Positions 1 to 35,758 of a stretch of 64,000 bases of DNA are shown here, piece by piece (position 1 is the stretch's first letter; each line of letters starts with the position of its first letter). Location of the stretch: positions 9,363 through 73,362 of the forward strand of contig CAZKOX010000001.1 in the NCBI GenBank assembly GCA_964554485.1, read 5' to 3'. The translations under genes and the position numbers were made by a program. The notes under the pieces were generated by a model that was not told the origin of the DNA, did no database searches, and saw only the letters and a list, made by a program, of their open reading frames with translations. The stretch is from an uncultured Candidatus Saccharibacteria bacterium (lineage in GTDB: Bacteria; Patescibacteriota; Saccharimonadia; Saccharimonadales; JAGQMS01).

Positions 1-608
1 AGGTGAACAACAACAATTTTGGGTGCTAATTTTCCTGCAGCTTCGAGTTTTCTCATAACTGAAGATACTGATAGACCATGATAGCCAAAGCGCTTAATAT
101 CAAAGTTTTCAGCGTCTTTAAGCGAGATGCCGTAGTATTTTGAATAATCTGGACGGTTTGCATGAAAGGCGCTGTCTGATGCGCCGAAGATCTGTACGCC
201 TGCAAATTGTTTTCTTAAACTTTCTAGTTCTTCAAGACATGCAGTTACGTGGATAGGCGCAAGACTAATCGCGTTTTCAAGCCGTTTTTGGTATTCATCG
301 TCTATTCGCCGATGTTGCAAAAAATAGCTACCAGGCGCTACTACTCGAAGGCCAATAGCGCTAATCGTTTCTTCGGGCCTTAGAAGTTCGGCGGAACGCA
401 AAATTTGTAATACTTTTGATGACGCCTCCGATAAACTAGCGATATCGGCAAAAACAGATGTTTTAGAGGGAGATGGTGACAGGGTGTATTCTAGTTCTTT
501 ATTGATCCATTCAAAATGTACTTCAGCGCGAAGATTCTCGCCTTCATAAAGTGCATATTTTCGGCTGGCGCTTCCTGGGTTAGCAATAAGAACTAGCGAG
601 CCGTCCAT
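1..608 (-). CDS. ackA: acetate kinase (N-terminal part; 3' end runs off window)
   Basis: Reverse-strand translation from ATG at 608: MDGSLVLIANPGSASRKYALYEGENL...KIVVH, matching the acetate/propionate kinase N-terminal ATP-binding signature. Lies directly downstream of phosphoketolase, the classic xfp-ackA pairing. Confidence 0.75.
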   Translation of the reverse strand, partial: MDGSLVLIANPGSASRKYALYEGENLRAEVHFEWINKELEYTLSPSPSKTSVFADIASLSEASSKVLQILRSAELLRPEETISAIGLRVVAPGSYFLQHRRIDDEYQKRLENAISLAPIHVTACLEELESLRKQFAGVQIFGASDSAFHANRPDYSKYYGISLKDAENFDIKRFGYHGLSVSSVMRKLEAAGKLAPKIVVVH

Positions 609-2938
609 GTCCACTCCTCAATTTCCGGTAAGTCAACGCCATGGCGCTTGATGTACTCGGTGTTTTCGTCGATTTTTTGCTTATATTTTGTTGCAATATG
701 TTCAGCTTCGGAATATGGTAAAACCTCGAGTTTTCCTAGTTTTTCGAAAATTGCTATTACGAGATCGTAGCGGCTTGTATGGTTACGGACATGCATGTCA
801 AATGGTGTAGTGGTGCTACCGTTTTCAATATAGCCGCGCACGTCAAAACGCTGTGGATCGTGCGTGTAGTTAAATAGTAGCGCCTTGACTGTCTCTGGAT
901 ATCCGTGAAAGTTGCAGATAACAGGCTTGTCTTTAGTGAACTGATCTTCAAAGCCAACTTGAGTAACACACAAACCACCTCTTCCAAAACCGCAGCTGGT
1001 AAGCGAGCTAATGTTGACGCATCGGATCTTAACTTCTGGCCACTCCTTTTTTGCAAGATCAATGGCCGCCATAACTTCCTTCATTGGATAGTCACCGGCT
1101 GCCGCAAGGACGATATCTGGGTTGGGGTCGGAGGCAAAATGCCAGGTCATTAGTCCACTCTCAACCTGTTGCTTGGCGAGCTTTGGAGTAAGCCAGCGTG
1201 GCTCTTGAGTCTTCCCAGCCACCATAATATTGATTTGCCGAGTCGTTTTGAGTATGTGGTCAAGAGTTGCTAATGTTGTGTTGCCGTCCGGAGGAAAGAA
1301 GACATCAACAAAATCTCCCTGGCGCTGCAATGCGTCATCAATAAAACCGGGGTTTTGATGACTAAATCCATTGTGGTCTTGCCGCCAGCCAGAACTGGTT
1401 AAGACGTAATTAAGTGAAGGAATGGTGCCGCGCCAAGCTACTTCCCGCGATTGATTTAGGAACTTCGCATACTGGTCCATCATGCTAACTATGACTTGTA
1501 TGAAAGCCTCATAGCTGGCGAAAATACCGTGTCGTCCAGTCATGATATAACCCTGAATCAAACCCTGAAGATTGTGTTCGCTAAGCATTTCCATAACCCT
1601 GCCGTTTGGCGACAGGTCTTTGTCCCAATCTTCGATCGGCCACTGCCAGGCGCGCTTGGTTTCTTCAAAAACGGCGTCAAGTTTATTTGAATAAGTCTCG
1701 TCCGGGGACATTAATCTAAAATTATTATTTTCTTCATTGAGTTTAAAGACTTCTTTTAAGTATAGTCCGGTACGGCGCATACTACTACTGCCGATTGTAC
1801 CGGGGATTGTGGCGTCTTCAGCAAATTTATCAGCTTCAGGTAAAACCAGTGGTTTATATACTGGATCTCCACCAAGGGCGTGTTTACTCATTCCAAGACA
1901 TTTGTGTGGGTCGCTTGGAATAATATCTTTCACAAACTCACCAAATCCTGTTTTCTCATCAAATAGTTCGTCGAATTTGTAACTTCTTAACCAGTCGTTT
2001 AAAAGCTGAAGCTGTTTCTTGTCGGTTTTTGCCTCTGTCAAAACTACTTGATGGCTCAAGCAATTTCCTTCAACTTTTTGGCCGTCTAGTTCTTTTACGC
2101 CGGTCCAGCCTTTTAGCGTACGCATGATAATCATCGGAGACTGTGTCGACGGCTTATGGCTGCCGGTTTTGATTTTTTTAATTAGCTGATGTGCTTTTTC
2201 AAGAGCGTCAGACATTTTTTTATGTGGGTTTTCGCCAACTGTCGTATCAACCAAGATCGGATGGTAGCCGTAGCCACTAAAAAGCGCCATTAATTCGTAA
2301 TTACTCATTCTCCCAAAAATTGTTGGGGCAGAGATCTTGTAACCATTAAGATGAAGAATCGGCAGTACAGTACCGTCAGTTTTTGGGTTAACTAATTTGT
2401 TTAGGTGCCAAGCACCGGCGGTCGGACCGGTCTCGGCTTCACCATCACCAACCAAGCAAGCTACTAGCAGCTCTGGGTTATCAAGAGCCGCACCATAAGA
2501 AGTAGATAAGGAGTATCCAAGTTCACCGCCTTCTAAGATAACTCCTGGTGTACCCGGGTTGCTGTGACTCGGGAATCCGTAAGGCCAACTAAACTGCCGG
2601 CACATATATTCGATACCATCGAGAGTCTGGGGAGTTTCCGGATAAAATCGTCCCAACGTACCTTCTATGAACAAGTTAGCTTGAAGGGCAGGGAACGCGT
2701 GGCCCGGGCCCAACACGAATAACATTTCTTGGTCATAAAATTTCGCCAATCGACTTAGGTGGGCGTAAGCAAAGTTTACGCCAGGCCCGCTACCCCAGTG
2801 CCCTAAAAGACGGGGCTTAATATCATCGAAAGTGTGGTCGCGCTGGCTCAAGAAGTTATTTTGCAAAAATATTTGAGCAGCGGTCAGGTAGTTAGCTGCT
2901 CGTAGGTATTTGTCTATACTTGAAAAGTCGTCGTTCAT
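593..2938 (-). CDS. xfp: xylulose-5-phosphate/fructose-6-phosphate phosphoketolase
   Basis: 781 aa with XFP family hallmarks (GHWGSGPG, EGGELGYSLS, GDGEAETGP thiamine-diphosphate region). Stop overlaps the ackA start by 16 nt. Confidence 0.9.
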   Translation of the reverse strand: MNDDFSSIDKYLRAANYLTAAQIFLQNNFLSQRDHTFDDIKPRLLGHWGSGPGVNFAYAHLSRLAKFYDQEMLFVLGPGHAFPALQANLFIEGTLGRFYPETPQTLDGIEYMCRQFSWPYGFPSHSNPGTPGVILEGGELGYSLSTSYGAALDNPELLVACLVGDGEAETGPTAGAWHLNKLVNPKTDGTVLPILHLNGYKISAPTIFGRMSNYELMALFSGYGYHPILVDTTVGENPHKKMSDALEKAHQLIKKIKTGSHKPSTQSPMIIMRTLKGWTGVKELDGQKVEGNCLSHQVVLTEAKTDKKQLQLLNDWLRSYKFDELFDEKTGFGEFVKDIIPSDPHKCLGMSKHALGGDPVYKPLVLPEADKFAEDATIPGTIGSSSMRRTGLYLKEVFKLNEENNNFRLMSPDETYSNKLDAVFEETKRAWQWPIEDWDKDLSPNGRVMEMLSEHNLQGLIQGYIMTGRHGIFASYEAFIQVIVSMMDQYAKFLNQSREVAWRGTIPSLNYVLTSSGWRQDHNGFSHQNPGFIDDALQRQGDFVDVFFPPDGNTTLATLDHILKTTRQINIMVAGKTQEPRWLTPKLAKQQVESGLMTWHFASDPNPDIVLAAAGDYPMKEVMAAIDLAKKEWPEVKIRCVNISSLTSCGFGRGGLCVTQVGFEDQFTKDKPVICNFHGYPETVKALLFNYTHDPQRFDVRGYIENGSTTTPFDMHVRNHTSRYDLVIAIFEKLGKLEVLPYSEAEHIATKYKQKIDENTEYIKRHGVDLPEIEEWTWTAR

Positions 2939-2993
2939 AACTCTTATGTTAATTGTATCTTTTATGTTTAGTAATATCTAACTTATATATTTG

Positions 2994-4232
2994 TTATTCT
3001 CGTCGCAACGCATCGATAGGGTTAATTTTAGCTGCTCTTCTGGCTGGCAGGAATACTACGGATAGACCGACCAGAATCATGAATAACACCAACCCAACAA
3101 TTAACCAAACCGGGGTAGCAAAGAGATCGAATGACTCATTGACACCTCTTTGACTAGCGAAACGATAAAGGATTACATTAACTATGGCTCCACCTCCAAC
3201 CGCCAGTACTATTCCAAATATTGATCCAACCAAGGAAAGAAGTATTGCCTCAAAAATAAATAGTCGTTTGACATCTCGGTTTCGTGCGCCCAAGGCCATC
3301 ATAAGGCCAATTTCTTTTGTTCTTTCAAGCAAAGAGACGGTTAGGGTGTTAAACATTCCCAATACAGCAACGATCATTCCGATGGCTCCAAAACCGAATA
3401 GTACGTAGTTAAATACCTTAAAAATTTGATTAATCTGGTCAACTGTGTCGGCAGGAGAAGTTGTAAGCAAACCAAGACTCTCAATTTGCTTACGAAGAGG
3501 GAGGACATTTTCTGTGTGATCAACAACTAGTTTCATTTGAGAATATGAGGTAACTCCGGCATTTTCAAATATATAGTTTGGAATAAAAACTTCACTTCCT
3601 GAACCGGAATCGACAATGCCGACAATAGTATAGGTGTCCTCTATCTCCTTAACTTCAGAGGTGGTTTTATCTTTAAGGGGAATAAGTAGGGATATTTTCT
3701 TGTTTATTAAATTGGTTTTTTCGTCTCCGCCGATAGCTTTAATGACAGAGTGGTTTATGACAGCAACTTTTGCGTCATTATCGCTCATACCCCGTCCTTT
3801 GACGAAATTTAGATTAGCTAGATCTTGATAATTCTTATCATATCCATATACGACGCTATCTATCTCGCTACTGTTGATCTTGAGGCTACCAGGGAAAGAG
3901 AATGATGAACCTATTGTTTGAACATGCGGAAGATTTTTTATCTTTTCCTTCATGCCGCTAGTCAACTTAACCACTTTTGAGTTTGGACTAGTAATGTCAA
4001 TAGATTTTATAGATTGGTTGCCGATAATTTCTTCTGTAACAAGATTTCGAACACCTATGCCGAATGATAGTAAGAAGAATATTGCTCCAATTCCAATAGT
4101 AATTCCAAAAACAGTTAAGAATGTGCGAAGTTTTTTTGAAACTAAGTTCTTCCAGGCAACATGAAGCAGTATTTTTATATTTATCCTGCGGCGCTTACGA
4201 AGCATTTTTGTTACTACATCAGATTTTTCCAT
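2994..4232 (-). CDS. ABC transporter permease, MacB/FtsX-like (N-terminal TM, large extracytoplasmic domain, C-terminal 3-TM FtsX domain)
   Basis: 412 aa; an N-terminal TM helix then a roughly 230-aa soluble domain, then the FtsX-type membrane domain (ALGARNRDVKRLFIFEAILLSLVGS...). Overlaps the upstream ATPase gene by 14 nt. Confidence 0.8.
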   Translation of the reverse strand: MEKSDVVTKMLRKRRRINIKILLHVAWKNLVSKKLRTFLTVFGITIGIGAIFFLLSFGIGVRNLVTEEIIGNQSIKSIDITSPNSKVVKLTSGMKEKIKNLPHVQTIGSSFSFPGSLKINSSEIDSVVYGYDKNYQDLANLNFVKGRGMSDNDAKVAVINHSVIKAIGGDEKTNLINKKISLLIPLKDKTTSEVKEIEDTYTIVGIVDSGSGSEVFIPNYIFENAGVTSYSQMKLVVDHTENVLPLRKQIESLGLLTTSPADTVDQINQIFKVFNYVLFGFGAIGMIVAVLGMFNTLTVSLLERTKEIGLMMALGARNRDVKRLFIFEAILLSLVGSIFGIVLAVGGGAIVNVILYRFASQRGVNESFDLFATPVWLIVGLVLFMILVGLSVVFLPARRAAKINPIDALRRE

Positions 4233-32754: not shown

Positions 32755-33576
32755 ATGTCGATGCCGCTTCACTTAGTTTTTGTAAGACACGGATTATCAG
32801 AAGGAAACTTTGCTCGTGAAAAAGCTAAAGTTGGCGACAAAAGCTATTTTAATGATGGGTTTCTCGAAAGGCCGGGGCATGAATGGCGTTTAATGCCCGA
32901 GGGGGTTGAGCAAGCTAAAAATGCCGGTGTTTGGATTAATAAGTACGTACTAAAAGCATACAATCTAGATAAGTTTGATAGATATATGTATTCGCCGCAC
33001 CGTAGAACGCGCGAAACAGCAGCCTCTTTGGGGCTTGAAGGTGCAAAATGGCGCTTGAATCGAATGCTTCGCGAAAGGTCTTGGGGAGAAACCGAAGAGC
33101 TAAGTCGCGAAGAACACGCCAAGCTTTATCCAAGAAATTACGCTTGGCAACAAAAAGATATTCTTAACTGGACGCCTCCGGGGGGTGAATCGATTGTCCA
33201 AATTTCTGACGGTCGAGTACGAGAATTCTTTGACACTCTACACCGCGAACATGATCACGATGGTGTGGATTCTGTACTGGCAGTGACGCACGGTGAGTGG
33301 ATGTGGGCGGCAAGATTAACGCTTGAATATATGTTCAACGAAGACTGGGTTGAATCTAGTAAGAACCCAGAAGAAAAAATACATAATTGCCAAGTACTGC
33401 ACTACACAAGAGTTGACCCGAAAACTGGCGAGATAGCGCCTTATTTGAAGTGGGTAAGATTGGTTAATGCAGGGTTTGAAAAAGCTGATGTAGGGGAGTG
33501 GCGAGAAAATGGGCGTAAATATTTGGATAATGAAGAGCTTCTAAAACAGGCAGAAGAGCTACCAAGACTTTGGTGA
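32755..33576 (+). CDS. histidine phosphatase family protein (phosphoglycerate mutase-like)
   Basis: RHG catalytic motif (LVFVRHGLSEGN) and a second His (VTHGEW). Confidence 0.75.
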   Translation: MSMPLHLVFVRHGLSEGNFAREKAKVGDKSYFNDGFLERPGHEWRLMPEGVEQAKNAGVWINKYVLKAYNLDKFDRYMYSPHRRTRETAASLGLEGAKWRLNRMLRERSWGETEELSREEHAKLYPRNYAWQQKDILNWTPPGGESIVQISDGRVREFFDTLHREHDHDGVDSVLAVTHGEWMWAARLTLEYMFNEDWVESSKNPEEKIHNCQVLHYTRVDPKTGEIAPYLKWVRLVNAGFEKADVGEWRENGRKYLDNEELLKQAEELPRLW

Positions 33577-33800
33577 ATATATTCATTGACAGAAGTATAC
33601 GAAAGTTGTAGATTAATGTTCAGCCTCGTTGAGCAATTAGCTCCGAGGAGTTATTTAACAGGTGTTGGCAAACAAATTGTTTCTTCTTCCCACAGGAGTT
33701 TTTATAGAAATCTTGCCGATACAGACGGCCGCTACTATGTCTTATATTTTAAGATCTAGCAGTGGCCGGCTGTCTCGTATGCAGCTTTCCTAAAAGAAAT

Positions 33801-33874
33801 AGCCCTGTGGTGAAGCTCGGAGTTCACATCTCCCGCACAAGGAGAAGGTCGCGGGTTCAAATCCCGCCAGGGCA
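33801..33874 (+). tRNA. tRNA-like gene, anticodon loop cgCACaa (Val-CAC by position), non-canonical G33 and A1:A72 mismatch
   Basis: Hand-folded cloverleaf: acceptor gccctg/cagggc, D-arm gtga-agctcggagt-tcac (G18G19 present), anticodon stem tctcc/ggaga, T-arm gcggg-ttcaaat-cccgc. Loop lacks U33. Confidence 0.5.
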
Positions 33875-34026
33875 GCGATGATTACAAGTCGAATATCGTC
33901 CGGTTTAATCCGGGGTAGTCATTAGCGAGCAGAGTAATCTGCTTGCGAGGGTTGGCAGACGCGCTAGCGCAGAAAGCCAATTGGGGTGGCGGTCGACCGG
34001 CAACGGTCGACTGCCACTTCACCAAG

Positions 34027-34100
34027 CGGGGATTAGCTCAATCGGTAGAGCACCCACCGTAATACGTGGCAGGTTGTGGATTCGAGTTCCGCATCCCCGA
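34027..34100 (+). tRNA. tRNA gene, identity unresolved (anticodon arm folds as 4-bp stem with 8-nt loop cgtaatac)
   Basis: Acceptor cggggat/atccccg, U8, D-arm gctc-aatcggta-gagc, T-arm gtgga-ttcgagt-tccgc, discriminator A. The anticodon region cccaccgtaatacgtgg cannot form a canonical 5-bp/7-nt arm. Confidence 0.55.
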
Positions 34101-34224
34101 CTGCTTGGAGTGTGAGCGTAAGTCTAGCTTTCCTTGAAGTGAAGGTCTTCGTGTACGAAAGTAAATGGTGGACGGTACTTTTTCACCTAACGAGACCGAC
34201 GACGACACACTCCAGGCAACCCCC

Positions 34225-34297
34225 GCCCTTGTAACTCAGTTGGCAGAGTAGCCGCCTTCAAAGCGGTATGTCATGGGTTCGAATCCCATCAGGGGCA
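34225..34297 (+). tRNA. tRNA with anticodon UCA (UGA-decoding; opal suppressor-like or recoding tRNA), canonical 73-nt class I cloverleaf
   Basis: Acceptor gcccttg/caggggc (one G-U), D-arm actc-agttggca-gagt, anticodon stem gccgc/gcggt with loop c-u-UCA-a-a, variable loop 5 nt, T-arm atggg-ttcgaat-cccat, discriminator A73. Confidence 0.7.
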
Positions 34298-34343
34298 CGT
34301 TTCCGACCACGAAGCGCACGGTATGTGTTCGTGGCGAAACAGG

Positions 34344-34388
34344 GGTGGGGCGACGAGCGAAAGCTTGTTGCCCCACCTATCTTCTTTT
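34344..34388 (+). terminator. Rho-independent terminator after tRNA cluster
   Basis: ggtggggc...gccccacc 8-bp GC stem enclosing an inner stem-loop (gagcgaaagctt), followed by tatcttctttt. Confidence 0.7.
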
Positions 34389-34616
34389 AGTCTGAACATG
34401 TTGGCGTGAGTGCTTGTGTGTTTAGATTAATAGTCTTGCCTGAAGCAGCCGGGGGGCCGGCTTCAGGCGAGCTGCCGAAGAGCGTGTGGTTCACCCCCTC
34501 GAACCGCGCACCGGCAGTGCCGAGGATTAGGAGGTGCGTACCCGTGAACGGCGCACTGACTTTTCCTCGGCAAAATCGATTGGAAGAATCCGAGACTCAC
34601 CTTGAAAGGGGTGAAG

Positions 34617-34754
34617 ATGACAACTCCGGGCTACAAGCCTTGCCCGAATCCCAAGTGCCAGGGCGGAAAGCATTACGCCAATGGCGCGCAAGTTTTTCTC
34701 GGGCTAGGGACGACTTGCACTACCTGCAATGGCAAGGGCGAAGTGAAGAAGTAA
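34617..34754 (+). CDS. small ORF (45 aa) encoding a zinc-ribbon / DnaJ-type CxxCxGxG finger peptide inside a GC-rich island
   Basis: MTTPGYKPCPNPKCQGGKHYANGAQVFLGLGTTCTTCNGKGEVKK. Strong SD aaaggggtgaag 5-7 nt upstream. Two Cys pairs (CPNPKC, CTTCNGKG). Local GC is clearly above the window average. Confidence 0.4.
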   Translation: MTTPGYKPCPNPKCQGGKHYANGAQVFLGLGTTCTTCNGKGEVKK

Positions 34755-35095
34755 CTTGATCGTCCGCCGGAGCTTATGCGAAGGAGGATGATCGAGGGGA
34801 TACTAAAAAGGTGGCCAACACCTGTATCTCCAATTAGCGTTAAACAAAATGTTTGACGGTAGCTGGAGATAAATATCATACAAAACAAAAGAGGCCGGAT
34901 TTCCAGCCCCTTTATGGGAAGGATTTTGGAGTACTCCACCCCTAGTCTCTTCCACACAATTAGGTTAGCATGGGTCTACTATTAATACGCAAGCATTTTA
35001 ATGATAAATTCGATGTTCGCTTCACAAAATTAACATCTTGAGCTATACTGTTGGGAACTGTTATAAATATTACTAATTGTTAGAGGAGTTTTTTA

Positions 35096-35758
35096 ATGTC
35101 AATTGCCCTGTCTGTCAAAAAACGTGAAGTTTTTGGTAACCGCGTAAAGAGTCTTTACCGCGATGGACTGATTGTTGGCAATGTTTTTGGTCGTGGCCAA
35201 ACATCGGTCGCGATTGAGGGTGATTATGAAACTATTCGAAAAGTTGTCACCGAAGCTGGCAAAAACCATCCAATTGAGCTAAAGATTGAGGGCGAAGGTG
35301 ATCATCTTGTACTAGTTAAGAATATAGACGTTGATCCGTCAAAAGGTCGAATCCGTCACGTTGAAATGCAAATGGTCAATCGAAATGAAAAAGTTGAAGC
35401 TGAAGTTCCGATTGAACTTGTTGGTACAGCGCCGGCAGTGCTTGCAGGCAACATGGTCATGACTCTAAACGACACGGTTATTGTGTCTGCTAACCCGACA
35501 AATCTTCCTGACCATCTTGAAGTGTCGGCCGAGCTACTTGTGGATCCAGAAGATATGATTACAGTTGCAAATATATCTGTTCCAAGCGGTGTCGAAATCA
35601 TGACTGAAGCTGATACGCCTTTATTTAAGGTTGAAGTACCTCGTAGCCAGGTTGAAGAAGCTGCTGAAGAGGGTGCTGAAGGTGAAGTTAGTGCGGCTGA
35701 TGTTCCAGCTGAACACGGCAGTGAAGATGCTGGATCTGAAGAAGCAAGCGAAAAGTAA
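35096..35758 (+). CDS. rplY: 50S ribosomal protein L25 / general stress protein Ctc (long form with acidic tail)
   Basis: N-terminal L25 fold block (LSVKKREVFGNRVKSLYRDGLIVGNVFG), C-terminal Glu/Ala-rich extension. SD agaggag upstream. Confidence 0.85.
   Translation: MSIALSVKKREVFGNRVKSLYRDGLIVGNVFGRGQTSVAIEGDYETIRKVVTEAGKNHPIELKIEGEGDHLVLVKNIDVDPSKGRIRHVEMQMVNRNEKVEAEVPIELVGTAPAVLAGNMVMTLNDTVIVSANPTNLPDHLEVSAELLVDPEDMITVANISVPSGVEIMTEADTPLFKVEVPRSQVEEAAEEGAEGEVSAADVPAEHGSEDAGSEEASEK

Follow-up and report, generated by a model that had tools for sequence, protein, structure and literature searches.

A GC-rich patch in a 64,000-nucleotide (nt) stretch of DNA from an uncultured Candidatus Saccharibacteria bacterium (the window, by which we mean the whole stretch analyzed) is the exchangeable cargo, or 3', end of an approximately 1.3-kb structured RNA locus in Saccharimonadales. 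The locus lies upstream of rplY and extends from promoter to terminator at about positions 33586 to 34913 on the plus strand, with the GC-rich segment as its 3' module. Apparently, it has not been described before. Both of its ends bear conserved, covarying RNA helices: P0, a 5' hairpin; P1, a long-range helix between the 5' leader and the 3' trailer; and Y:Z, a stem that abuts P1. Directly 5' of the conserved 3' block there is usually one small open reading frame (ORF), and in the window this is a 45-amino-acid (aa) ORF for a Cys-rich microprotein. The initial annotation had singled out positions 34400 to 34800 as a compositional island beside a tRNA cluster. The main interest lies in the larger locus rather than in this patch alone.

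Results

The locus and its conserved RNA frame

Related loci were collected with the rplY product, L25 (35096 to 35758), as the query. This search yielded two metagenome-assembled genome contigs, labelled Saccharimonadales or Patescibacteria, with 81 to 83% L25 identity. More loci came from an L25 protein search and contig look-ups, and a pattern scan of metagenomes added one further true locus. The locus was found upstream of rplY in 15 distinct versions, in which L25 is 55 to 100% identical to that of the window; where L25 identity falls to 49%, the element is absent and the intergenic region is about 90 nt long. We refer to the related loci by L numbers, among which L014 is a contig of the same species and L006 comes from the closest other species (L25 92% identical). 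The locus is chromosomal and syntenic and has no prophage context, and its upstream neighbor genes vary.

Common to all 15 versions are a sigma-70 promoter, P0, a short linker, the P1 arms, and the Y:Z stem with its small hairpin. The interior between these conserved ends is variable (437 to 1368 nt) and holds tRNAs, tRNA-like modules, GC-rich hairpins, and usually one small ORF. In the window, its order is tRNA-Val(CAC), hairpins, tRNA-like module 2, a spacer, a tRNA with the anticodon UCA, two hairpins (the second followed by a U-run), the GC-rich leader, and the ORF (Table 1).

To count covariation, the two conserved ends of 14 loci were joined into mini-constructs. Over these loci, the 11 pairs counted in P1 were 96% paired, and five of them changed on both sides, as in CCAGGUGUUGAC/GUCAACACCUGG, CCAGGUGUUAAUAA/UUAUUAACACCUGG, and ACAGGUAGUA/UACUACCUGU. 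Two pairs of P0 carry compensatory changes (CCUCG/CGAGG versus CUUUUG/CAAAAG). The whole structure was 86.5% paired, compared with 78.4% in shuffles (0 of 500 were as high) and 36 to 49% when the partners were slid. RNAalifold independently recovered Y:Z and its inner hairpin, where 10 of 17 pairs are compensatory, and a covariance model of the 3' block had a single match in the 64-kb window, at 34809 to 34881 with 80 bits. The minimum-free-energy (MFE) fold of the full 1314-nt transcript contains P1, Y:Z, and the tRNA cloverleaves, with the P1 duplex at -24 kcal/mol. We rest P1 on covariation because another perfect 12-nt inverted repeat (I2) arises by chance in the same 2.6 kb. An alternative helix between Y and an upstream element, X, was suggested by close relatives as a possible switch. 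Across the family it is weak (62% paired), and it is missing from MFE folds, so we set it aside.

The RNA was assigned to the plus strand because of the orientation of the promoter, tRNAs, and ORF and because folding is asymmetric. Positions 34400 to 34800 fold at -183 kcal/mol on the plus strand (z = -6.4; 0 of 100 shuffles were as good), compared with z = -2.4 on the minus strand. The leader is thus structured, as the initial annotation held, and both hairpins that it quoted are present (inverted repeats I7 and I1).

With respect to composition, positions 34401 to 34800 have 57.0% GC and form the top 400-nt bin of the whole window. Positions 34437 to 34760 have 58.3% GC, compared with 43.1±3.9% for 324-nt windows (z = +4.0), and the only 3 of 3184 such windows that reach 58.3% all fall within this locus. 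The tRNA region (33801 to 34298) has 55% GC, the leader (34437 to 34616) has 62% GC, and all structured parts of the locus, tRNAs included, are rich in GC. The island proposed earlier is therefore real as a compositional peak but does not start at 34400; its true span, 33800 to 34760, takes in the tRNAs.

An Rfam scan, which had been proposed for the leader, returned nothing but the three tRNAs in 33500 to 35200, even at E ≤ 10, and only tRNAs at the gathering score in 13 related loci. Over the same ranges and thresholds, the covariance models of GOLLD, ROOL, OLE, HEARO, raiA, and other large Rfam RNAs gave no match. As identities for the GC-rich RNA, transfer-messenger RNA (tmRNA), T-box, RNase P, signal recognition particle RNA, and 6S RNA were dropped, since no model match or hallmark motif was found. 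For tmRNA, ARAGORN finds none, and the ORFs of the locus have a Shine-Dalgarno (SD) sequence and a start codon and encode zinc knuckles; for the T-box leader (RF00230), Rfam gave no match in the window region or the related loci. A scan of viral contigs with four conserved motifs produced chance matches in coding genes only, and blastn against phage records produced generic tRNA similarity only.

A polymorphic slot for small ORFs

One small ORF lies directly 5' of the 3' block in 12 of the 15 versions, and in all 12 ORF-bearing genomes this slot, with the conserved SD hairpin on one side and the conserved 3' block on the other, is occupied. A clade of three (L021, L022, and L025) has the RNA frame and tRNA-like modules and no ORF. 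The ORFs are of five unrelated types, four of them Cys-rich. Type A (window, L002, and L013; 45 to 50 aa) has the pattern CPNxxC...CxTCxGxGxVK; type B (L001, L006, L017, and L020; 55 to 60 aa) has four CxxC pairs; type C (L005 and L009; 55 aa) has two; type D (L010 and L016; 58 to 59 aa) has no Cys pairs; and type E (L027; 63 aa) has four CxxC pairs. Within types, the Cys residues are invariant and about half of the identical residues differ in codon. In all four ORF types for which a pair could be compared, the nonsynonymous rate (dN) is 0.23 to 0.56 and the synonymous rate (dS) is saturated.

The distribution of types does not track L25 relatedness. In every locus, the GC content at third codon positions (GC3) of the ORF is at least that of rplY (0.65 versus 0.31 in the window). 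Together, the mismatch with L25 and the high GC3 indicate cassette exchange, which probably took place by recombination in the conserved flanks. A comparison of the window with L006 shows what such an exchange looks like. Both have the same parts up to the hairpin after the third tRNA. From there, L006 has a GC-rich region of its own, which is longer, and an ORF of another type; the match to the window resumes at the SD-burying hairpin and again at CUUGAUCG 3' of the stop codon. The synteny comparison raised by the initial annotation, which asked if relatives have or lack the island between the tRNA cluster and rplY, thus had a different outcome: relatives neither keep nor lack it, and the same slot holds another GC-rich cassette, whose small ORF is also different.

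Five independent metagenome contigs (L005, L014, L015, L023, and L024) have one of their ends within the variable interior or at the 3' block. Such breaks within the element suggest that co-existing variants break assemblies there.

Every ORF has a GGUG-containing SD sequence 3 to 8 nt 5' of its start codon, and the GGUG core is paired in a local MFE hairpin in 12 of 12. Upstream of ORFs of types A, B, and C, a 16-nt motif, CACCUUGAAAGGGGUG, is found. The conserved CUUGAUCG follows ORFs of types A to D (window, L001, L002, L005, L006, L009, and L010). The SD-burying hairpin is the only part of the leader that is conserved; the rest of the leader is not conserved in sequence beyond the species and cannot be aligned with the leaders that precede the homologous type A ORFs of L002 and L013. 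Even within the species, the first leader hairpin (CCUGAAGCAGCCGG-GGGG-CCGGCUUCAGG, 34441 to 34469) differs from its counterpart in L014 (97 to 124), where a 1-nt deletion and one substitution leave a shorter upper stem, so its exact form is not under strong constraint. Hairpins with GGGGGG also occur upstream of the ORFs in L001, L010, L013, and L016.

The type A microprotein

The ORF at 34617 to 34754 and its SD sequence (aaaggggtgaag, within AAAGGGGUGAAG just before the ORF) are present as the initial annotation claimed. Judged from its sequence conservation, this ORF is a genuine protein-coding gene for what is predicted to be a four-Cys zinc-knuckle microprotein with one exact CxxCxGxG. 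Its peptide includes the stretches TPGYKPCPNPK and HYANGAQVFLGLGTTCTTCNGK. Of the two Cys pairs that had been described, the second (CTTCNGKG) is the exact DnaJ-type CxxCxGxG, but the first (CPNPKC) is C-x4-C and not CxxC. In an alignment of the window peptide with its homologues in the same slot of L002 and L013, all four Cys residues are invariant, and 12 of the 22 residues identical between the window and L002 have different codons.

A 117-aa ORF with a GTG start (34406 to 34759) overlaps this gene in another frame. It was suspected earlier to be a GC-driven artefact, and we agree, because in L014 the 1-nt leader deletion shifts the 117-aa frame into stops and leaves the 45-aa frame intact with one change, K41R. 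The 117-aa ORF also has no match in Pfam. In L007 and L008, gene callers annotate a 204-aa ORF antisense to the GC-rich cassette (2746 to 3360, minus strand) and miss the small zinc-finger ORF; this 204-aa ORF is likely a GC-driven artefact of the same kind.

No homologue of the 45-aa peptide was found by a single-sequence word-index search, by HMMER against 1.84 billion representatives, or by a search with the three-sequence alignment. In Pfam, the window peptide reaches DnaJ_CXXCXGXG at E = 0.025 and 15.3 bits (cut-off 32.7), as well as IBR, all below threshold. The best DnaJ_CXXCXGXG match of any locus is that of the type B peptide of L001 (E = 2.4e-6, 28.1 bits, against the same cut-off of 32.7). 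The Anti-TRAP family (PF15777, gathering cut-off 32 bits) gives E = 0.006 and 16.9 bits for type B of L001, E = 0.38 for type A of L013, and no match for the window peptide. Among PDB sequences, the window peptide resembles one zinc center of the cysteine-rich (CR) region of Escherichia coli DnaJ (1EXK, residues 23 to 62) at E = 0.58, and type B resembles DnaJ at E = 0.0016. A single-sequence AlphaFold2 model of the window peptide is all-beta with a mean confidence (pLDDT) of 77, and Foldseek found no PDB match for it. Searches of the locus peptides against Pfam, PHROGs, and PADLOC gave subthreshold zinc-finger noise only, and the weak PHROGs matches are to families of unknown function. In sequence, then, the microprotein appears to resemble the zinc knuckle of the DnaJ CR region and of anti-TRAP without qualifying as a member of either family.

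tRNA and tRNA-like modules

The three matches to the tRNA model (RF00005) in the window score 45, 50, and 70 bits, against a gathering score of 29. In L006, a Val(CAC) tRNA of another scaffold stands at the tRNA-Val position. Module 2 is tRNA-like and not a standard tRNA, given its 8-nt anticodon loop (in the window and L006) and the insertions, roughly 15 to 95 nt long, in the D loops of its homologues. Every lineage keeps the T arm and the acceptor stem (C1-G72, A73) of the module, whose anticodon loops are CGUAAUAC, CUAACAGG, or loops that read GAA, UGG, ACA, CAA, AUC, or CUC. In L010 and L013, the D-loop insert includes a hairpin that matches the 790 loop of 16S rRNA (GGAUUAGAUACCC) in its 9-nt loop, A(U/C)UAGAUAC, and its closing pairs.

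The anticodon arm can differ between near-identical loci. L021 (module at 315 to 390) and L022 (1852 to 1928) have identical L25 proteins, and their elements are identical at 687 of 704 positions (97.6%); eight substitutions in one 27-nt patch turn the AUC anticodon of the module into GAA, and in L025 the same body bears CUC.

Homologues of spacer domain S, which follows module 2, occur in L001, L006, and L009; their compensatory changes were read directly from the sequences, and the domain matches no known family. The UCA tRNA was labelled by ARAGORN as a selenocysteine tRNA, an identity that we rejected. Selenocysteine tRNAs are about 90 nt or longer, with a long variable arm and 8/5 or 9/4 stems, and this one is an ordinary 74-nt cloverleaf that aligns end to end with the general model. 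The selenocysteine and opal-suppressor readings were also dropped on the grounds that the same scaffold has the anticodon AUC, on a different anticodon stem, in L006 and that UGA is a stop codon in the window, where TGA ends 5 of 39 long open frames.

Between the UCA tRNA and the leader, the terminator-like hairpin has a polymorphism in L014 (position 34369) that turns a G-U pair into G-C. The weak promoter-like site that follows has the same -10 region (TAGATTAAT) as the main promoter and is missing from L006.

A neighboring small RNA

Next to the locus, a putative small RNA gene of about 70 nt lies on the minus strand. By sequence it has the marks of a terminator-bounded small RNA, namely, its own promoter, a conserved body, and a covarying terminator stem with a U-run. 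It is almost invariant in nine loci, which exceeds the conservation of the neighboring proteins, and no Rfam family matches it. The unit, including its promoter, is inverted relative to rplY in L009, L010, L013, L016, L022, and L025; it is absent in L017, L020, and L027 and has an apical insertion of about 190 nt in L021. Its terminator hairpin could also end the plus-strand transcript of the locus. By eye, we saw no convincing pairing of the small RNA with the leader or with the SD hairpin.

Table 1. Features of the locus and its surroundings (window positions unless a related locus is named)
Feature	Position	Strand	Basis or remark
Sigma-70-type promoter, TTGACA-17-TAGATT	33586-33614	+	Both hexamers kept in L001, L002, L006, L009
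P0, 5' hairpin (CCUCG-UU-GAGC...GCUC-C-GAGG)	33624-33648	+	8 pairs, 85% of cells paired
P1 5' strand, ACAGGUGUUGGC	33658-33669	+	Perfect 12-nt complement of 34814-34825 (inverted repeat I3)
tRNA-Val(CAC)	33801-33876	+	ARAGORN; Rfam tRNA, 45 bits
tRNA-like module 2	34027-34101	+	Pro-type acceptor C1-G72/A73, normal T arm, 8-nt anticodon loop CGUAAUAC
Module 2 homologues	L001 3072-3158; L009 ~2530-2646; L010 ~2463-2644; L013 ~353-508		
Spacer domain S, closing stem GCUUGGAGUGUG/CACACUCCAGGC, inner GAAA-loop hairpin	34103-34217	+	Inverted repeat I5
tRNA with opal anticodon UCA	34225-34298	+	ARAGORN label "SeC"; Rfam tRNA, 70 bits; 74-nt cloverleaf
16-bp GAAA-loop hairpin, then U-run, terminator-like	34343-34388	+	L006 hairpin covaries, no U-run there
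Possible internal promoter, TTGGCG-16-TAGATT	34401-34428	+	8/12 consensus positions, below scan threshold; weak
GC-rich leader (62% GC), four hairpins	34435-34592	+	34435-34471, 34472-34518, 34518-34572, 34577-34592
SD-burying hairpin (UCACCUU-GAAA-GGGGUGA)	34597-34614	+	Local MFE fold
45-aa microprotein gene, type A, MTTPGYKPCPNPKCQGGKHYANGAQVFLGLGTTCTTCNGKGEVKK	34617-34754	+	ATG start; homologues in L002 and L013; unannotated
Conserved CUUGAUCG, then variable-length hairpin, 3' of stop codon	34755-34795	+	CUUGAUCG kept after ORFs of types A-D; MFE fold
X (GGGGAUAC), possible alternative partner of Y	34796-34803	+	Compensatory change in L010, L013 (GGGGAUGC/GCAUCUCC); 62% paired
P1 3' strand, GCCAACACCUGU	34814-34825	+	Covariation, MFE fold, inverted repeat I3
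Y:Z stem, UAUCUCCA/UGGAGAUA, enclosing inner hairpin 34838-34858	34825-34832 with 34864-34871	+	Abuts P1, no spacer
Putative small RNA gene, ~70 nt, GUGGAAGAGACUAGGGGUGGAGUACUCC...CCUUCCCAUAAA, then intrinsic terminator (34913->34888)	34880-34957	-	Promoter-like TTGCGT 34992-34987, TAACCT 34968-34963
rplY own promoter, TTCACA-17-TATACT	35021-35049	+	Right-hand limit of locus

Discussion

A structure-gated expression platform and its difficulties

We favor the explanation that the locus serves to express diversifying, anti-TRAP-like microproteins from a platform that is punctuated by tRNAs and gated by structure. We give this overall picture an even chance of being right, and each mechanistic step on its own is less probable than that. 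Cuts by RNase P and RNase Z at the modules, whether tRNA or tRNA-like, would set free a short, structured mRNA. Because these enzymes need only an acceptor stem, T arm, and elbow, their use would explain why anticodon arms and D loops vary freely. The 5' leader would stay annealed to the 3' trailer through P1, which, stacked on Y:Z, would form a helix of about 20 bp that could protect or mark the 3' end or serve as an RNase III site. Opening of the SD hairpin would gate translation, and the microprotein may bind another macromolecule, as anti-TRAP does. The leader and ORF cassette would be swapped by recombination in the conserved flanks.

Several points weigh against this explanation. That the modules are cut at their boundaries, that P1 forms in vivo, and that the ORF is translated are things that we infer. 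All Pfam and PDB matches of the peptide fall below curated thresholds. The ORF-less clade means that the RNA has a role independent of the microprotein. The patch of eight anticodon-arm substitutions between L021 and L022 looks more like a targeted replacement than like neutral drift, and a functional anticodon would account for it better than punctuation would. In addition, the terminator-like hairpin and the promoter-like site that precede the leader mean that the ORF may be on a separate transcript; were the transcripts split, P1 would form in trans or only on read-through RNA. Lastly, counts of G-U against A-C in the helices (23 versus 19 overall and 11 versus 5 in the 3' block alignment) do not settle the strand, and the P1 complementarity could therefore be a feature of the DNA.

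Alternative explanations

The ORF-less clade and the conserved, covarying core helices are also what one would expect if the locus encoded a large ornate noncoding RNA, a scaffold or ribonucleoprotein component like GOLLD or ROOL, with tRNAs in a variable linker and the ORF as an optional passenger. Its size (0.7 to 1.6 kb), GC richness, and high structure within an AT-rich genome fit this view, as does the D-loop insert that matches the 16S rRNA 790 loop, and the linker of GOLLD has been reported to carry tRNAs (PMC12286853). The conserved core is small, however (about 70 plus 75 nt), pseudoknots and conserved junctions were not detected in it, Rfam has no match at E ≤ 10, and the locus is chromosomal and syntenic and not part of a prophage. 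Purifying selection on ORFs with strong SD sequences further means that the ORFs are not incidental, and we consider this explanation doubtful. Rather less probable still is a conflict locus, in which tRNA-like decoys or replacements would act against anticodon nucleases or tRNA-targeting toxins, and a zinc-finger microprotein would inhibit the opposing factor, with both diversifying. The change of an anticodon arm between same-species contigs that are otherwise 97.6% identical over 700 nt would be explained in this way, as would the unusual anticodons (A34 and UCA) and 8-nt loops, the swapping of five microprotein types regardless of phylogeny, the atypical composition, and the fragmentation of contigs at the locus. 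Yet PADLOC defense models gave no match and PHROGs gave only weak matches to families of unknown function, no partner nuclease or toxin gene is conserved beside the locus (its upstream neighbors differ), nothing similar was found in the phage records or viral contigs searched, and modules with 95-nt D-loop insertions or 5- to 8-nt anticodon loops are unlikely to decode. A broader proposal, which we make tentatively and hold to be no less doubtful than the ornate RNA, is that the locus represents a new modular class in episymbiotic bacteria of the candidate phyla radiation (CPR). Closing helix, reprogrammable anticodon arms, rRNA-mimicking inserts, and diversifying microproteins would together form a conflict or host-interaction system that targets the translation apparatus and has no described counterpart.

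The initial annotation saw in the segment the remnant of a mobile element, integrated beside a tRNA gene and bearing a foreign small ORF. GC and GC3 above those of the host, the adjacency to tRNAs, and the difference in cassette between close relatives speak for such an origin, but no integrase or transposase was found among the Pfam-scanned neighbors, and 33000 to 35600 holds no direct repeat of the tRNA 3' end that could be att-like. Moreover, the slot is occupied in all 12 ORF-bearing genomes, GC richness is common to the whole structured locus, and the segment lies inside a syntenic, helix-bounded locus. We therefore do not retain the integration remnant, which is improbable. An explanation at the level of DNA, in which the P1 arms and the X, Y, and Z repeats serve a site-specific recombinase that exchanges or inverts cassettes, is more improbable still. 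It draws on the perfect inverted repeat I3, which brackets exactly the variable interior, on X and Z being direct repeats that are both complementary to Y, on G-U changes that are not clearly above A-C in P1, and on the inversion of the neighboring small RNA unit between lineages. Nevertheless, the orientation of the interior is constant in all loci, no recombinase gene was found nearby, the P1 arms change by compensatory substitution at five positions, including 3-nt blocks, as base pairing predicts, and the adjacent P0 and inner hairpin are plainly RNA hairpins with G-U pairs. Finally, three tRNA matches, a terminator-like hairpin, and a peptide without a database homologue might be read as an ordinary tRNA operon beside an unrelated stretch, with the ORF a chance product of GC richness. 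This we disfavor as highly improbable, given the L002 and L013 peptides at the same slot with invariant Cys residues and synonymous turnover, the frame kept in L014 where the overlapping one breaks, the conserved SD motif, and the long-range covariation between the 5' and 3' ends.

Relation to known systems

The components of the proposed expression platform have precedents, and it is their combination that appears to be new. In E. coli, tyrT-tpr, thrU-tufB, and secG-leuU are tRNA-mRNA co-transcripts in which tRNA processing sets the 5' end of the mRNA, and the tpr protein is very small. The present locus likewise has tRNAs and a downstream protein gene behind one promoter, whereas those co-transcripts have no closing helix, degenerate tRNA-like modules, or ORF cassette polymorphism. 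The hok mRNA of the type I hok/sok system folds back from 5' to 3' and sequesters its SD sequence, so that translation needs refolding or processing, and a small RNA gene is adjacent. Our locus shares with it a small ORF in a structured RNA, 5'-3' pairing, a buried SD sequence, and a small RNA gene alongside; it differs in that its peptides are hydrophilic zinc knuckles and not membrane toxins, its small RNA is not antisense to the translation start, and it is three times longer and contains tRNAs. In rrn operons, RNase III stems form from complements about 1 to 3 kb apart and bracket the rRNA precursor, including tRNAs. Distant conserved complements also bracket a structured, tRNA-containing RNA here, but the helix is 12 bp (about 20 bp with Y:Z), the interior is not rRNA, and cleavage would be by analogy.

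Synthesis of anti-TRAP is coupled to tRNA status through a structured leader. The protein itself (RtpA, PF15777; 53 aa, Bacillus), like the locus peptides, is a stand-alone Cys-rich zinc knuckle of about 50 aa. Anti-TRAP is a DnaJ-type microprotein that acts by binding TRAP (PMC2896485). Unlike in that system, the window peptide has no Anti-TRAP match and a first pair of C-x4-C, tRNA-like modules take the place of a T-box, and there is no TRAP context. The likeness to the DnaJ CR region (PF00684; 1EXK) consists of the exact CxxCxGxG and, in types B and E, of four CxxC pairs as in a whole CR region. The differences are scores of 15 to 28 bits against 32.7, the lack of a J or C-terminal domain in these free-standing peptides of 45 to 63 aa, and, in the window, one CxxCxGxG plus one C-x4-C where DnaJ has four CxxCxGxG and two zinc centers. 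In GOLLD, the 3' part is conserved, and another part varies and can hold tRNAs (PMC12286853). Our locus is similar to GOLLD and ROOL as a large, GC-rich, structured RNA linked to tRNA genes, and it is unlike them in that it matches no Rfam model, is not of phage or prophage, has a small core split between its ends, and usually encodes a protein. Rfam and literature searches produced no description of a closing helix combined with variable tRNA-like scaffolds and a polymorphic microprotein slot.

Significance

The locus adds a real microprotein family of at least five types that is missing from protein databases of 1.8 to 5.8 billion entries. Gene callers skip these microproteins, and some contigs receive spurious antisense or overlapping ORF calls instead. 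The RNA framework around the microproteins is conserved, covaries, and is recognized by no RNA family library; the same locus unites insertion-tolerant tRNA-like scaffolds that show within-species anticodon-arm change, a closing helix that spans about 1.1 kb, and a polymorphic ORF slot. Whether the expression platform or the conflict locus is the better reading, the coordinates, helices, and peptides are concrete targets for transcriptomics and biochemistry. If the model of processing and gating is true, the locus would be a compact natural case of tRNA-punctuated, structure-controlled expression of exchangeable microproteins in symbionts with reduced genomes. If the conflict reading is true, it would point to an undescribed layer of tRNA- or ribosome-directed warfare in Saccharibacteria.

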